Part shown: positions 19,207 through 24,903 of the stretch, piece after piece | Layout of the letters: the number at the start of each line of letters is the position of its first letter | Numbering within the stretch: the first letter of the stretch is position 1 | DNA from: a virus | Taxonomy: Duplodnaviria; Caudoviricetes | Strand: one strand, 5' to 3' | IMG/VR virus record: IMGVR_UViG_3300027769_000026 | Coordinates: 17,367 to 81,366 of that record | DNA: 64,000 nt | Program-made: the position numbers and the translations under genes | The notes under the pieces: model-generated | What the model saw: only the letters and a program-made list of their open reading frames with translations | Told to the model about the DNA's origin: nothing | Databases searched by the model: none

Positions 19207-22200
19207 TTAGGTCTTGTTATTGAGGTTTTCTAGCACATCAACAGTGCGTCTTGAATCTCCTGCCACCTGATCCTGGCGACCCAATATTGCTGTTAGTATC
19301 TGATTGGTTTGAGCTTGCTGTTCTGCCAGCGTTCTGATATCCGATTGTGTTTGTTCTGCTCTGGTCGCTTGTGCAGTTTGGGCAGAACTTTGCTGTGACC
19401 CATCGCTTGCCGTGGCCACAGTGCCTAGTGCACCCGCAGTCACTGACCCAATGCCAGTGGAACTATTCGGTGTTTGCACGTTTCCTCTAGTGGAACCAGC
19501 ACGTCGACGATTTGCTTCGGCTTGCATCCGTGCTTCTTCACGTGCTTCATTTTGTACCCCAATATCGTCTGGAAAACTTGATCTGGACATCAATGCATTG
19601 TAAATTTCTCTTTCGTCTGTGCTGGTTTCTGTAATGTCGTTGTCAGTGTTGGTACTTGTACCAGCACTTCTGCTTCTAGCGGCATTTTCCGGAGGACGAT
19701 TCAATGCACCTGTAGCGGCAACAGCACCCACAGCACCAGGCGTAACTGAACTTACAGCACCTTGAGATTTTTGTCTATTATATTGCTCCATTAACCAAGC
19801 AGGGTAGTTTCTTGCATTGCGAGGATCCATTTGCAAAGCCATATCTAATGCTGCCATTTGATCTGATGTTAACGCTTTGCCTTCTTCAACTACTTTACCT
19901 GCGACTCTTAATTCATTTCTTCGTTCAGTCATTGTTCCAGGCTGTGCTCCACCGGGTGCAGGTGTTGGCTGTATCGCATTGAGCTCTCGGTTGATGCCTC
20001 TGTTGCTTGCACCAAAAAATTGTCTTGATATCCATCCGCCTGCAGATTCAGCAGCCCCGCCTAGGAACTTATCAGCGATCATTGAACCGCCAATGGCACC
20101 AGCAATACCAACTGGTGCTGATGCAACACCTAATCCAGCAATGCCTCCTGCAAGACCGCCAACTGCACCGCCAGCGCCAGCAACTGCACCTCGTGTGAGA
20201 GATCCACCCCTAGATTCAGCAATTTTGTCATCAAGTTCTCTAAGTGCTTTCTCAGCATCTCCTCTTGATAGTTCTCCTTTGGTGTATTTGTCAATGACCT
20301 GCCTGCGCATGTTTTGCAGGTCACTAACCGATGTAAATTCGTTTAGCACTACACCAAAGAGAGAACCAATAATGCCGCCACCTCTGACTTGTCTTGCTCC
20401 GGCTTTGACTGCACTAGCAACTCCAGACATGTTAGATGCAGTACCAGCCGCAGGATTAGGCGCAGGAGATGCACCTGGTGCAGGTGTTCCTGGTGGGGGT
20501 GTTACTGCGCCCGGCACTGTTGCTGGTGCAGGAGATGTTGGCACTTGTAATGGTCTGCCATCTGGACCTAAAATTGTACTAGGTCTAGTTGCTCCAGGTG
20601 TACCTGTTGGAGGTGTACCTGTTGGAGGTGTACCTGTTGGAGGTGTACCTGTTGGAGGTGTACTTGGTCTATTTGCGGCCGCGCCTGCCGCGCCAGTGGC
20701 AGCAGTTCCTGGTGCTCCTCCTGGAGAAGGAGTTGGGTTTGGTCCAGTTGGTGGAACAGTTGGTCCAGGTCCAGGACCCCTACCACCAAATATGCCGCCT
20801 GCGCCTCCTGCGCCTCCGCGCATTGCTCCGCCTATGCCTCGCAAGGCCAGGAATGGCGCTAGCAACGCTAATGCGGCAACCATGCCATAGATTAGATTTT
20901 TTGTAGTGTTTGATAATCCAAGGAATTTATCTACTGTGGCATTGATTGCATTTTGCAAGCTGGTAAATGCTGGCATCAGTGGCTCAACTGCTCGCAATAG
21001 ATCTCCTTGCACTTGTTGTAGTTTTCTCTGCGATTCAATGTATGCGCCTGCGGCATCGGCGCCTGCGCCAGTTGGCGCATTGCCCAGTTGTGCAACTTGA
21101 TCTGGAGTGCGTGTGGCGGCGGCTCTTCTGATAAAATCAATAAGGCCTCTAGCATCAGCATCACCTGTGGCAGCCATGACTGCAAGAGGAGATCCTTTAA
21201 GATTTTGTAATGCTGTGGCGGCAGCTGGTTGTAGCATTGCTGCCTGTTTTGCAGGATCAGTCTCGTTACGATATTCTTCAGACTGCATGATCCTACCAAG
21301 GTCTGAAGAAAGTGTTTGTAGTTTTGCAAAGGCACCACCTATCACAGTGGGGTCAAATCCACCTAATGCGGCATATTCCAGTTCATTTGTTATCTGGCCT
21401 GCAAACTGCCCGCCAATGGCCGCAAGTGTTTTTCCAAATGTTTCAAGCTCTTGAGCCGCTTTTCGTTCTCCTGCAGCCAACATGCGCTGTTGTGCGGCTC
21501 GGAACATATCGTTGCGGTACAGTTGATCAAATGCGCTGTTTAGTTCATCAACAGACTTGCCTGTTGTTTGTGCTAATCTATACAGCTCTCTTGCCTGATC
21601 TTCAGCCATGCGCTGTGCAGTTCTTTGCGCTTCAGCACCTGTTAATCCTGCTTGACCTACCATCATAACAGAACGGCTATACGATGCCATTAGCTGTTCA
21701 ATGTTCTGCCCGTAAAAGTTGGCTTTCTTAGCACTGTCTAAATATTGTTTTGCACCATCAGCAAATCGTTGTCCTGAATTTCTAATGTTTTCATCAAGCA
21801 TGCCAGCCATGTTGCCAGCATCCGCAACGGCTTTGTTGAATTGTTCCAGTGTCAGGCCAGCTGTCTTTGCTGAAATAGCAAAGCTGAGTGCTGTTGTGGC
21901 CAGTCCACCTAGACCAGATCCAAATGCTTTGATTGTTGTCTGTGCACCTTGCTGCCATACTTCATATAACCTTACGGCCGCAGCCGCGGCCAATCCCAAC
22001 GAAGCTGAAAATGCAGTTACCAACGGTGCAAGTGGCCCAAGTATGGACATCAGTCTACCAGCAACACCAGCAAACATGCCTTCAAGCATGCCCATTACAC
22101 CACCTTTTACATCTCCGCCTATTATGCGTTTGATGTTTTCGGCACTTTGGTTTTTGCCGCCGGTATTTCTACGATATATGTCTTCGTATTTTTCTCCCGG

Positions 22201-23133
22201 GCGCAGCCTATATTGTGTGTCTTTTGACTTGATACCTTTGTCTAGGTCCTTGAATGCTTTGCTTAACTTGTCAGCATCGTCTCCGGCTGCATTGACTGCT
22301 TGTCTGAATTCTTCCAAAGGTTTTTTGGCGGCAGCACCAAATGTGGCTCGTATGTCCTGTGCAATGATTTTTGCGGCGGCTTGGCGTTGTTCAGGCGTGA
22401 GCTTGCGGAGATCTTCCCTTACACTTTTGATAGATTCGCTTGCTCTTCTGGTTGCCGGATCTAGCTTTTCGTCGTTTTTGTTGGCTCTTACCCTGTCAGC
22501 AAAGCTGTATCTTCTTGCTCTGCCCAGCGTTTTTTCTAGATCTTCGGTTTGATTTGCGTTGTATCTGGCACGGCGATTTGCGTTTTGTGACGCTGATGCA
22601 GTGCTGGCATTGCCTCTGATTCCGCTGGAAGTGTTACGATTGATAGAACTTAGCAGTGCATTGGCACGTGCTTGTTGCTGTGATAAAGACTTGAAACCTG
22701 ACTCCATGGCACGAGTTAGTGTGCGATTTCCTAAGGAAATAGATGCAGGACTCATGCCGGATGAAACAGCAACTCTGTTCCTGGCAGATGTGTTTTTTGT
22801 TTCTAATTTACGTATAGCTGAAACTACTGCGCTCTGTCCCTTGGCTATGTTATTGAGTCCAACGCTTAGAGATTTTATTGCTGATGCATTTGTTTGCTGT
22901 GCTTTGACTGACTTGTCCAGGCGTCCAATAACTGCTTTTTGATTGCTCAGATCTTTTGTGGCTGTGCTCTGTTGCTTGGACAGCAGATCATTTGTCTTTT
23001 TAACAGCAGACAACAAGGCAGCATTCCTGGTGCCCATGACACTTGAAAGGCTGTTGATAGATTCTTCCGTGGCCCATTTTGGCCAAGCGGCAATCTTGCT
23101 AGCGAGTTGATCCGGATCCGGTGGTAATGCCAT
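19207..23133 (-). CDS. Tape-measure-like protein
   Basis: 1308 aa, A/G/Q-rich helical composition, hydrophobic segments (e.g. LIYGMVAALALLAPFLALRG); divergent from the gp26-like gene. Confidence 0.75.
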   Translation of the reverse strand: MALPPDPDQLASKIAAWPKWATEESINSLSSVMGTRNAALLSAVKKTNDLLSKQQSTATKDLSNQKAVIGRLDKSVKAQQTNASAIKSLSVGLNNIAKGQSAVVSAIRKLETKNTSARNRVAVSSGMSPASISLGNRTLTRAMESGFKSLSQQQARANALLSSINRNTSSGIRGNASTASASQNANRRARYNANQTEDLEKTLGRARRYSFADRVRANKNDEKLDPATRRASESIKSVREDLRKLTPEQRQAAAKIIAQDIRATFGAAAKKPLEEFRQAVNAAGDDADKLSKAFKDLDKGIKSKDTQYRLRPGEKYEDIYRRNTGGKNQSAENIKRIIGGDVKGGVMGMLEGMFAGVAGRLMSILGPLAPLVTAFSASLGLAAAAAVRLYEVWQQGAQTTIKAFGSGLGGLATTALSFAISAKTAGLTLEQFNKAVADAGNMAGMLDENIRNSGQRFADGAKQYLDSAKKANFYGQNIEQLMASYSRSVMMVGQAGLTGAEAQRTAQRMAEDQARELYRLAQTTGKSVDELNSAFDQLYRNDMFRAAQQRMLAAGERKAAQELETFGKTLAAIGGQFAGQITNELEYAALGGFDPTVIGGAFAKLQTLSSDLGRIMQSEEYRNETDPAKQAAMLQPAAATALQNLKGSPLAVMAATGDADARGLIDFIRRAAATRTPDQVAQLGNAPTGAGADAAGAYIESQRKLQQVQGDLLRAVEPLMPAFTSLQNAINATVDKFLGLSNTTKNLIYGMVAALALLAPFLALRGIGGAMRGGAGGAGGIFGGRGPGPGPTVPPTGPNPTPSPGGAPGTAATGAAGAAANRPSTPPTGTPPTGTPPTGTPPTGTPGATRPSTILGPDGRPLQVPTSPAPATVPGAVTPPPGTPAPGASPAPNPAAGTASNMSGVASAVKAGARQVRGGGIIGSLFGVVLNEFTSVSDLQNMRRQVIDKYTKGELSRGDAEKALRELDDKIAESRGGSLTRGAVAGAGGAVGGLAGGIAGLGVASAPVGIAGAIGGSMIADKFLGGAAESAGGWISRQFFGASNRGINRELNAIQPTPAPGGAQPGTMTERRNELRVAGKVVEEGKALTSDQMAALDMALQMDPRNARNYPAWLMEQYNRQKSQGAVSSVTPGAVGAVAATGALNRPPENAARSRSAGTSTNTDNDITETSTDEREIYNALMSRSSFPDDIGVQNEAREEARMQAEANRRRAGSTRGNVQTPNSSTGIGSVTAGALGTVATASDGSQQSSAQTAQATRAEQTQSDIRTLAEQQAQTNQILTAILGRQDQVAGDSRRTVDVLENLNNKT
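20596..20667. repeat. 4x perfect 15-bp tandem repeat AGGTGTACCTGTTGG plus a partial copy (PTGTP repeats)
   Basis: Seen directly at 20596, 20611, 20626, 20641. Confidence 0.95.
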
Positions 23134-23244: not shown

Positions 23245-24093
23245 ATGACACAAGCTAACAATCCGTTAGGACAGTATTTTAGAAAGCCAGGACTCAATGT
23301 GGCATTGCCCAGCGGAGGAAAGTTCTACAAGACACCGCCCAAGATAACTGTTGACGGTGAGATTGCGGTATATCCAATGACTGCAAAAGACGAACTGCTG
23401 GTAAAAAATGCAGACTCTTTGCTGAACGGAGATGCTATTGTTCAATTGATCAAGAGCTGTGTGCCTGACATTGCGGACCCACAAGAAATGCCCAATCCAG
23501 ACGTGGATGCTGTACTGCTGGCCATACGCAAAGCCACATATGGTGAAAAGATGGAAATAACTGCCAGTTGTCCATGCAACGAATGGTCAGGCACTTACTC
23601 CATTGGAGTGGACAATCTTTTGATGAGGATCAAAGGCATTGACCCTGTGAATGAAGTTGAATTGTCAAACGAACTGCTGGTAAGATTGGCTCCCAGCACC
23701 TTGGCTGACCAAAATCGACTGGGCATGATACAGTTTGAAAACGTGCGCAAGCTACAAACTGTGATGGATTCCGAAGACGAAGAACTTAAACTGCGTGTAA
23801 GCAACGAAGTAACTGGTCGCAACATTGAGCTGGCACAAGAAATCATATCAAAGGTCATCATAGCAGTGATCACACCAGATGGTAATGAAATCAATGATCG
23901 CAAGTTCATCAGTGAGTGGTTGGGTCAGCTGGAAACCACAGAGTTCAAGAAAATCGAAGACAAGATCAGACTGATCAATCAAAGTGGCGCAGAAACAAAG
24001 GTTGAAGTTGGCTGTGGCAAAGAAGGATGTGATCGCAAGTTTGAAATTGAATTCACACTGGACCCAGTAAGTTTTTTCGCACAAGGCTCCTGA
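23245..24093 (+). CDS. gp26: Baseplate hub / tail assembly chaperone (T4 gp26-like)
   Basis: NPL..YFRKP...V.LPSGGKFY, V.PMTAKDE....N.D.LLNG.A....IKSCVP, D.DA.L.AIR.ATYG, two Cys pairs (CPC; C....C); SD GGAGG. Confidence 0.8.
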   Translation: MTQANNPLGQYFRKPGLNVALPSGGKFYKTPPKITVDGEIAVYPMTAKDELLVKNADSLLNGDAIVQLIKSCVPDIADPQEMPNPDVDAVLLAIRKATYGEKMEITASCPCNEWSGTYSIGVDNLLMRIKGIDPVNEVELSNELLVRLAPSTLADQNRLGMIQFENVRKLQTVMDSEDEELKLRVSNEVTGRNIELAQEIISKVIIAVITPDGNEINDRKFISEWLGQLETTEFKKIEDKIRLINQSGAETKVEVGCGKEGCDRKFEIEFTLDPVSFFAQGS

Positions 24094-24114
24094 GCACCAC
24101 CGACAATGCTCAGG
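24072..24114 (+). promoter_or_regulatory. Candidate -1 programmed ribosomal frameshift signal (slippery heptamer plus stimulatory hairpin)
   Basis: T_TTT_TTC at 24072-78 in the gp26 frame; CCTGAGCA/TGCTCAGG stem at 24089-96/24107-14; the -1 frame is open into ORF 24114-24323. Confidence 0.75.
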
Positions 24115-24323
24115 TGATGAAGTACGTTGACGAATATCGCACTGAAGCCAGGAGCCTGATAAAAGATGTACAACAACTAGCAGTGTACAGTGGGCTCAGT
24201 TACAACGAAGTGATCAACATGAGCCTGGAAGAAAGACAAGTCCTGTCAGAAGTCATCAAAGACAAACTAGACCTAGACATGAAGCTAGCTGGTATCAAGA
24301 CCAAAAAAGAAACATACATGTAA
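24114..24323 (+). CDS. gp51-like C-terminal chaperone segment (probably translated as a frameshift extension of gp26)
   Basis: GLSYNEVINMSLEERQ.L motif of the lambda T / gp51-like type; no properly spaced SD before GTG/ATG. Confidence 0.7.
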   Translation: MMKYVDEYRTEARSLIKDVQQLAVYSGLSYNEVINMSLEERQVLSEVIKDKLDLDMKLAGIKTKKETYM

Positions 24324-24903
24324 GTCAGAGCTTGCCTTATATTTCAAGTATCCTCTAACACTTGGCTGCTGTCGCAGCCTTCATTTCACATTCACATCGC
24401 TATCGCTCGTGATATGTTCATGAATCATTTTTATTTTTTAGATTCTAAGATTTATTTTGTTTACTAGTGAAACAAGATGATATTTTCTCTGAGGTTCCAG
24501 CCACACTTCGCCCTGTTAAGGGCAAAGTGAAAAGCTGGACTAAGGACTTTCTCCAGAGTACCATACCACATCTATCAGAAACAACCCAGAGGGCAAAGGC
24601 GGTCATGCTGTACCTTTTTACGTCTATCTTCTTTAATGACGCTGACTAATCCAAGACACCCGATAGAATCGTCTTGGGATCATGCAAGTTATAATTGTCA
24701 ATAGAGCTTGCTCATTTTGGTCTTACCATTCTCACACCAAGCCAGTTTCATACCGTTTGACTCGCGTCCTGTAAAGGATAGTGGTGCTGAGTCTGTGCTA
24801 CCGCGCACAATTTCCGTCCCTGCGATACGTGTGTCCAGGTCTAGGGCAACTAGTTATGCGGCCGTTGCGCAGCCTATCGGTAGTGTTGAGCCTGTGGGGA
24901 GTT
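24324..24903. ncRNA. Candidate large structured non-coding RNA (about 580 nt; minus strand favoured by transcription context)
   Basis: No credible ORF; many nested helices: 24364-79; 24487-96/24583-91 enclosing 24496-24539; 24651-77; 24684-24711; 24717-40; 24759-63/24789-93 enclosing 24767-78; 24794-24809 with its loop complementary to 24878-83. Confidence 0.6.

Follow-up and report, generated by a model that had tools for sequence, protein, structure and literature searches.

How does a phage with a single gp26-like gene obtain the two related proteins that T4 encodes in its separate genes 26 and 51? The question is raised by a locus in a stretch of 64,000 nucleotides (nt), hereafter the window, from the IMG/VR record IMGVR_UViG_3300027769_000026, an 81-kilobase piece of an uncultured virus genome. 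At this locus a gp26-like gene runs to its stop codon while a second open reading frame (ORF) continues in frame -1. An earlier note, made from the letters of the window alone, had proposed that the two are fused by a programmed -1 frameshift. The comparative analysis reported here makes this very probable: ribosomes would slip on the heptamer T_TTT_TTC within the gp26-like gene and produce nested short and long forms, a pair of the lambda G/GT kind. The proposal is upheld by an invariant heptamer, a switch of the conserved frame at that point, the small number of independent starts, the spacing of a downstream stem and the existence of natural fusions.

A predicted slippery site between two reading frames

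The first ORF was rightly called gp26-like. It matches PF12322 'T4_baseplate' with 66.7 bits for a cut-off of 24.5 (E=3e-18, profile positions 9-211 of 219) and phrog_150 'baseplate hub' with E=1e-23. Its 3' end reads GTA AGT TTT TTC GCA CAA GGC TCC TGA, the stop lying at 24091-93, and the heptamer has the coordinates and the phase given in the earlier note, with four sense codons between it and the stop. Recomputing the -1 frame gave the result that had been claimed. This frame has no stop from 24051 until the TAA at 24321-23 and reads FFRTRLLSTTDNAQVMKYVDEY, so that the predicted slip product, ...DPVSFF-RTRLLSTTDNAQVMK..., would count 359 amino acids (aa) and the unslipped product 282. The predicted tryptic peptide across the two frames would end in ...FEIEFTLDPVSFFR, and the 0-frame C-terminus is ...DPVSFFAQGS.

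The only candidate starts of the second ORF in the window are GTG 24114 and ATG 24117, in or at a local stem. The sole motif resembling a Shine-Dalgarno (SD) sequence near them, AGGTG, lies 2 nt from ATG 24117, in agreement with the remark that the start at 24114 has no spaced SD and falls within the stem. Directly after the stop of the extension comes a gene-free gap of about 570 nt (24334-24903). The nearest cultured relatives are giant phages of the Atu_ph07, Phosso, 121Q, RaK2, GAP32 and PA5oct kind, with 27-38% protein identity, and a DNA-level search for the locus among cultured phages gave no match. The features are collected in Table 1.

Table 1. Position and nature of the features discussed, in window coordinates
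Feature	Position	Strand	Description
gp26-like gene	23245..24093	+	0-frame product is the 282-aa short form; PF12322 / phrog_150 'baseplate hub'
Slippery heptamer T_TTT_TTC	24072..24078	+	in phase X_XXY_YYZ; AGT TTT TTC at 24070-78
-1 frame extension (CGC ... TAA)	24078..24323	+	81 residues after FF; plausibly a C-domain of the 'mini-gp51' type
Predicted stimulatory RNA structure	24084..24158	+	9-base-pair (bp) outer stem 24084-92/24150-58 around an inner hairpin; 5-nt spacer
Local 8-bp hairpin, 10-nt loop	24089..24114	+	alternative to the long-range stem; -11.1 kcal/mol alone
1308-aa protein, probable tail tape measure	19207..23133	-	divergent from the gp26-like gene

In the proposed mechanism, most ribosomes would terminate at the TGA and release the short form. 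A fraction would pause at the stem, some 5-6 nt past U_UUU_UUC, with phenylalanine transfer RNAs (tRNA-Phe) on UUU and UUC. Both tRNA-Phe would re-pair one base back, CGC would be read as Arg in the -1 frame, and the slipped ribosomes would complete a long form made of the same body and an 81-residue helical C-domain. The nested pair would correspond to T4 gp26 (short) and gp51 (long).

Conservation of the junction in divergent lineages

Loci of the frameshift layout were gathered from IMG/VR and from cultured phages (124 loci, 100 of them unique) and reduced to 71 representatives sharing less than 80% identity in the extension. The earlier note had proposed looking at the conservation of TTTTTTC in related jumbo phages, and the outcome is clear: T occupies heptamer positions 1-6 in all 71 lineages, and position 7 is C in 68 and T in 3. 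The codon ahead of the Phe pair takes 10 forms (N, S, D, H, T, R, A, Y, V, S), every one ending in T, an ending found in 66% of the NNY codons in the rest of these ORFs. TTC encodes the second Phe in 68 of the 71, and only 29% of Phe codons elsewhere are TTC. In T4 the end of gp26, ..EFFELL, is encoded GAG TTC TTT GAG, so the protein does not dictate TTT TTC. These comparisons indicate that the heptamer is conserved as nucleotides, beyond what Phe-Phe alone would ask, and conservation at this level in 71 divergent lineages places the site far beyond chance.

Immediately after the heptamer the conserved frame changes. The 0-frame codon that follows TTC takes 19 forms (A, V, E, G, D and others), whereas the -1 codon overlapping it is CGN (Arg) in 67 of 71 lineages, with the four synonyms in about equal use. 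The positions of lowest information are the 0-frame wobble upstream of the heptamer and the -1-frame wobble downstream of it, and conservation of the -1 peptide FFRx(R/K)(I/L)L... begins with its very first residue. An in-phase heptamer was found in every relative examined, including the T_TTT_TTY of RaK2, 121Q, GAP32, PA5oct, XacN1 and SCTP-2. The combination of an in-phase T_TTT_TTY and a -1 extension of 60-70 aa occurs in cyanophages S-CAM3 and MED4-213, Methylophilales phage Melnitz, Sinorhizobium phage phiN3, Stenotrophomonas phage BUCT608, a KVP40-like Vibrio phage and Aeromonas phage Aswh_1 (Straboviridae). In Melnitz the 0-frame stop comes immediately after the heptamer (TTT TTT TAA).

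The RNA downstream of the heptamer is predicted to be structured. The earlier note had drawn attention to a perfect 8-bp stem beginning 10 nt after the heptamer, with arms CCTGAGCA (24089-96) and TGCTCAGG (24107-14). This hairpin is indeed present, but it is not the best structure when 87 nt of the window are folded: the long-range 9-bp stem, with arms AGGCUCCUG (24084-92) and CAGGAGCCU (24150-58), then prevails (-27.3 kcal/mol, z=-3.1), and the two compete. The long-range stem is kept, with one G.U pair, in an 84%-identical relative (L004). In the 71 lineages taken together, the mean folding energy of the 70 nt behind the heptamer is -15.6 kcal/mol, compared with -9.2 for coding windows of the same genes, and in 91.5% of the lineages the downstream region is stabler than the upstream coding windows (Wilcoxon p=1e-12). 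Downstream of the heptamer about 0.3 of the bases are paired at nt 1-6 and about 0.75 at nt 7-16, and the stem starts, family-wide, about 6 nt past the heptamer. Its 5' arm is usually the RxRIL-coding AGG(C/A)TC.., with a partner whose distance differs among lineages.

A homopolymer at such a junction could also act during transcription. RNA polymerase would then add a U on the T run, and the fused protein would be made from a subset of messenger RNAs, as polymerase slippage on A/T runs yields fusions in some bacterial and insertion sequence genes. Variant sites lend themselves to this explanation: T_TTT_TTT (T7) in RAS14, XacN1, phiN3 and Melnitz, and a T9 run in RsoM2USA, so that in these lineages transcriptional slippage could contribute. 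For the family it is unlikely, since a polymerase slips efficiently only on runs of about 8-9 or more, and 68 of the 71 lineages have exactly T6 followed by C. The run moreover keeps strictly to the X_XXY_YYZ phase, and a stem about 6 nt downstream has the geometry of a stimulator of ribosomal -1 frameshifting and no role for the polymerase.

The layout could alternatively be that of two separate genes, the small ORF being initiated at GTG 24114 or ATG 24117 or by coupling of termination and reinitiation, and the heptamer merely encoding Phe-Phe. All GenBank records annotate two genes, or just one, and an ATG overlaps or adjoins the stop (ATGA or TAATG, the classic coupling layout) in Atu_ph07, Phosso, BF17/121Q and two further genomes (L007 and XbC2). 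The ATG at 24117 is kept in L004, and FF is conserved as protein, being found also at the end of T4 gp26. Against this, starts are scarce in the family as a whole. Within 6 codons of the heptamer an ATG is present in 10 of 71 lineages and any ATG, GTG or TTG in 20, which leaves 51 with none, and an SD-like motif lies near the junction in 1 of 71. The first ATGs of the extension are scattered from +3 to +58 codons, and a -1-frame stop stands directly ahead of the heptamer in 8 of 71 lineages. A hidden Markov model (HMM) of the extension matched 460 representative proteins, in-frame fusions among them, and the short matches begin at scattered profile positions, as is expected where a gene caller has to guess the start. 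Conservation of the -1 peptide FFRxRIL sets in at the heptamer, upstream of any start, and the peptide is colinear with the in-frame fusions; the conserved first 15-38 residues therefore cannot be accounted for by independent initiation. Nor does a heptamer that merely encodes Phe-Phe account for a T before the first TTT and a choice of TTC that are kept through changes of amino acid, when T4 manages with TTC TTT. We consider separate genes very improbable as the explanation of the layout.

Natural fusions provide a further view of the junction. In-frame versions of the gp26-like body with the extension are 319-357 aa long, and those of 319-351 aa make up about one seventh of the best matches to the HMM of the extension. 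The junction of the in-frame versions, ..LDxxxxFRxKIL.., with one Phe, is colinear with the trans-frame ..DPVSFF|RTRLL... Among the best 80 of at least 597 matching IMG/VR stretches, 73 loci were clean and of the frameshift type, all with TTTTTTC, and 6 were in-frame; the other (L137) has the heptamer with an interrupted upstream frame. The contexts of the in-frame fusions were reached through an alignment scan, a scan with the single in-frame sequence P0038 having given no match. In each of the 5 contigs examined the in-frame long form adjoins a short PF12322 paralog that has no C-domain. Complete genomes of the frameshift type (Atu_ph07, BF17, Phosso) have one PF12322 gene and T4 has two. 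Whether through recoding or through duplication, every genome thus comes to have a short form and a long one, and this is the strongest argument that both are made and needed.

The contigs with tandem short and long PF12322 paralogs and no frameshift (L160-L164, behind L075, L077-L079 and L081) differ in the order of the two, short-long or long-short, and one of them holds both within a single open frame of 678 aa. This variation suggests that recoding was replaced by duplication repeatedly and independently. A decaying or mis-assembled fusion gene, a pseudogene or homopolymer error with no recoding function, is hardly conceivable: homopolymer runs are error-prone and a minority of contigs carry in-frame versions, but the same -1 layout recurs at 124 independent loci, finished cultured-phage genomes from different platforms included, and the in-frame versions have one Phe (not T5 or T7) and always a second paralog.

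Fold, neighbourhood and kinship with T4 gp26 and gp51

What the two forms might do was approached through structure models, for residues 1-110 of the window protein (predicted local distance difference test, pLDDT, 85) and for the in-frame homolog P0038 as a proxy for the long form. The AlphaFold model of P0038 reached a pLDDT of 91 and a predicted template modelling score of 0.87. Foldseek found no match in the PDB for this full model (best E 0.2), and a structural scan showed its first ~90 residues to be similar to YqbN, the tail assembly chaperone of HK97 and Rbstp2171 (Z 4.2-4.7). The same scan with the N-domain of the window protein returned Z>=2 in only 27 of 48,161 chains. The top three were YqbN (3klu, Z 5.9), HK97 (2ob9, 5.7) and Rbstp2171 (3fgx, 5.6), with 86-90 residues aligned, and the next reached 3.5. 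Foldseek with the window N-domain placed two of the three chaperones first and second, at an E of about 1, which is not significant. YqbN (3KLU), HK97 (2OB9) and Rbstp2171 (3FGX) are solved tail assembly chaperones (PMC9603447). The modelled C-domain alone gave generic helix-loop-helix matches only, and its fold therefore says nothing on function.

Four cysteines are invariant in the in-frame long forms (C95, C98, C251 and C254 in P0038), and in the window protein the corresponding places are taken by CPC and CGKEGC. This CxxC ... CxxC arrangement suggests a zinc-binding middle domain in the gp26/gp51 family.

On the opposite strand, next to the gp26-like gene, lies the gene of the 1308-aa protein, in the divergent orientation that the earlier note had pointed out. 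The named ESM-Atlas clusters closest to this protein are tape measure / PhageMin_Tail (score 0.93). Of its syntenic counterparts, that of RaK2 is annotated as similar to tape measure and that of PA5oct as a structural protein, detected by mass spectrometry in virions. No Pfam or PHROG family matched the 1308-aa protein. From its language-model neighbours and the annotation of relatives it is probably the tape measure. A BLAST match to T4 gp29 was marginal (E=0.005) and involved low-complexity sequence. The protein contains long Gly/Ala-rich hydrophobic stretches, around residues 976-1034, and at about 1.5 Å per residue its 1308 aa would imply a tail of some 200 nm.

From the likely chaperone-like fold of the N-domain and the adjoining probable tape-measure gene we infer a mode of action like that of lambda G/GT for the pair. 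The body common to both forms would hold the tape measure or the hub, and the extension of the rarer long form would recruit it to the growing hub or tube. An abundant short form and a rare long form, at a fixed ratio, would act jointly as chaperones in the assembly of hub and tape measure, by analogy with lambda G/GT, P2 E/E+E' and T4 genetics, and would be absent from the virion. The earlier note had drawn the same link to G/GT. The chaperone-like fold and the neighbouring probable tape measure speak for that part; the tie to T4 turns out to be one of paralogy, not of synteny.

In T4, gp26 (208 aa) and gp51 (249 aa) are listed as 'hub assembly chaperones' (Leiman et al. 2010, PMC3004832, Table 2), and gp51 is reported as required yet not present in the particle (PMC3004832). 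The two proteins match PF12322 (8.8e-64 and 3.9e-52, respectively) and phrog_150, and gp51, about 48 residues longer at its C-terminus than gp26, matches phrog_634 'baseplate hub assembly catalyst' as well. Gene 26, on the minus strand with gene 25 after it, diverges from 51-27-28-29. Genes 26 and 51, described as separate in the earlier note, are divergent paralogs in T4 that could never be fused there, and paralogy is what links them to the window. An internal in-frame product of T4 gene 26, 26' (95 aa, annotated at L042:7803-8090), means that T4 also makes nested products from this gene, by another device.

The kinship of the extension with gp51, claimed for the window in the earlier note, differs between types of extension. 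Extensions of the cyanophage and KVP40 type align with the gp51 family (hhalign probability 96%, E=5e-9), the F of the junction being aligned onward to gp51 200-244. The cyanophage type also matches phrog_150 positions 231-281, resuming where the match of the first ORF ends. The window belongs to another, 'WYMRG', type, which compares with the cyanophage type in a colinear manner but less strongly (hhalign E=2e-4, probability 47%). Set against the gp51 alignment, the profile of the window type gave P=0.04 at the colinear place, a weak value, and a profile of the fusion made in silico was colinear across the junction with a probability of 15% only. The comparison of the window-type profile with the single T4 gp51 was too weak to stand alone, and the in-frame long-form alignment aligned with gp51 over the N-terminal parts only. 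The sequence comparisons thus support 'gp51-like' well for the family and make it plausible for the window extension.

Several points weigh against the frameshift and the function proposed for its products. The whole case is one of comparative sequence analysis. The downstream region of the window is unremarkable if only 75 nt are folded (z=-0.56), and a -1-frame ATG (24117), 15 codons past the heptamer, is present in the window and in its 84%-identical relative, so that a separately initiated 68-aa product may be made as an extra. The matches to the chaperone fold have modest Z values (the caution level being Z 8) and root-mean-square deviations of 4.5-7.9 Å, and no chaperone family came up when PDB sequences and Pfam were searched with a profile of the N-domain. 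For these values of Z and deviation, a tail-assembly-chaperone fold of the modelled N-terminal domain is no more than likely. The window extension has no phrog_634 or phrog_150 match at E<=1, and its link to gp51 consists of weak profile comparisons and of position. The gp26-like gene is divergent from the probable tape-measure gene, not co-oriented upstream of it as in lambda; the same divergent layout is found in BF17, RaK2, PA5oct and T4. Finally, some of the T4 literature has gp26 as a hub component and not as a chaperone (PMC3004832).

Significance and comparison with known systems

The tail-chaperone -1 frameshift is well known as a kind; its presence in the gp26/gp51 family of T4-like and giant phages and the alternative of duplication appear to be new. 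The gp26 and extension frames are joined in none of 29 GenBank/RefSeq records. We found no report of a frameshift in gene 26/51 homologs in the literature outside subscription-only papers, and the omics paper on PA5oct does not mention one. In RaK2, PA5oct and RsoM2USA no gene is called on the conserved -1 extension. The gp26-like gene itself is misnamed in some records, as 'Lead, cadmium, zinc and mercury transporting ATPase' in Yersinia phage fHe-Yen9-03 and as 'portal protein' in WPEC5.

T4 is the best-studied phage, and its genes 26 and 51 belong to the last of its tail genes that still lack a clear role. Most relatives appear to produce this pair as nested products of a single gene, through the recoding device of tail assembly chaperones. 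The programmed frameshift provides a testable model for the two genes, in which a short form in excess would handle the tape measure or hub and a rare long form would dock it. If it is true, the annotation of hundreds of phage genomes would be corrected, including cyanophages with a free-standing 'gp51' of 37-55 aa, and a strongly conserved U_UUU_UUC with a defined stem spacing would be added to the recoding signals of bacterial viruses. The family also offers a natural experiment on when gene duplication replaces frameshifting.

Going further, the gp26/gp51 family may be the long-missing tail assembly chaperone of the whole T4 superfamily, giant phages of the RaK2/Atu_ph07 type and cyanophages included, with an ancestral -1 frameshift on U_UUU_UUC that duplication replaced in T4 and its closest relatives and, independently, in some uncultured lineages. 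We lean towards this broader view, with reserve. The one major group of long-tailed phages supposed to be without G/GT recoding would then come under that rule, and the need of T4 for both gp26 and gp51 would be explained.

A conserved -1 frameshift in tail assembly chaperone genes, with lambda gpG/gpGT as its example, was reportedly described by Xu, Hendrix and Duda in 2004. No sequence similarity to the lambda G/GT type was detected, and the window protein differs from it in being about twice as long and in having the extra four-cysteine middle domain. The likeness lies in the arrangement: a -1 slip, predicted here, on an X_XXY_YYZ site few codons before the stop, a minor form extended at its C-terminus, and a gene adjoining that of the tape measure. 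Phage P2 is said to make its tail chaperones E and E+E' by a frameshift on the slippery TTTTTTG (reportedly Christie et al., 2002). It would share with the window a contractile tail and a small tail-assembly gene in which a U6-type heptamer close to the end brings about a -1 shift; its family is reportedly unrelated, its heptamer ends in G, and its genes are said to lie on the same strand as, and upstream of, the tape-measure gene.

Closer to the window are the mini-ORFs annotated as 'Baseplate hub assembly catalyst gp51' (phrog_634) in cyanophages, phiN3, Vibrio phage D486 and Melnitz. As in the window, they lie in the -1 frame directly after a gp26-like gene that ends in an in-phase T_TTT_TTY. 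Unlike the product predicted here they are annotated as free-standing proteins of 37-55 aa with internal Met starts, and no record joins them to gp26; the WYMRG-type extension of the window is also more divergent.

With T4 itself the window shares a short and a long form that would differ by a C-terminal tail of about 50 aa, and a locus adjoining hub and tape-measure genes. The sequences run in parallel at the junction, where T4 gp26 ends ..FFELL, gp51 goes on ..VFKLLVNPDEI.. and the trans-frame protein would continue ..FFRTRLL... The means differ: T4 has two divergent genes, with no slippery site and no -1 extension, whereas in the window a single gene is predicted to yield both forms.

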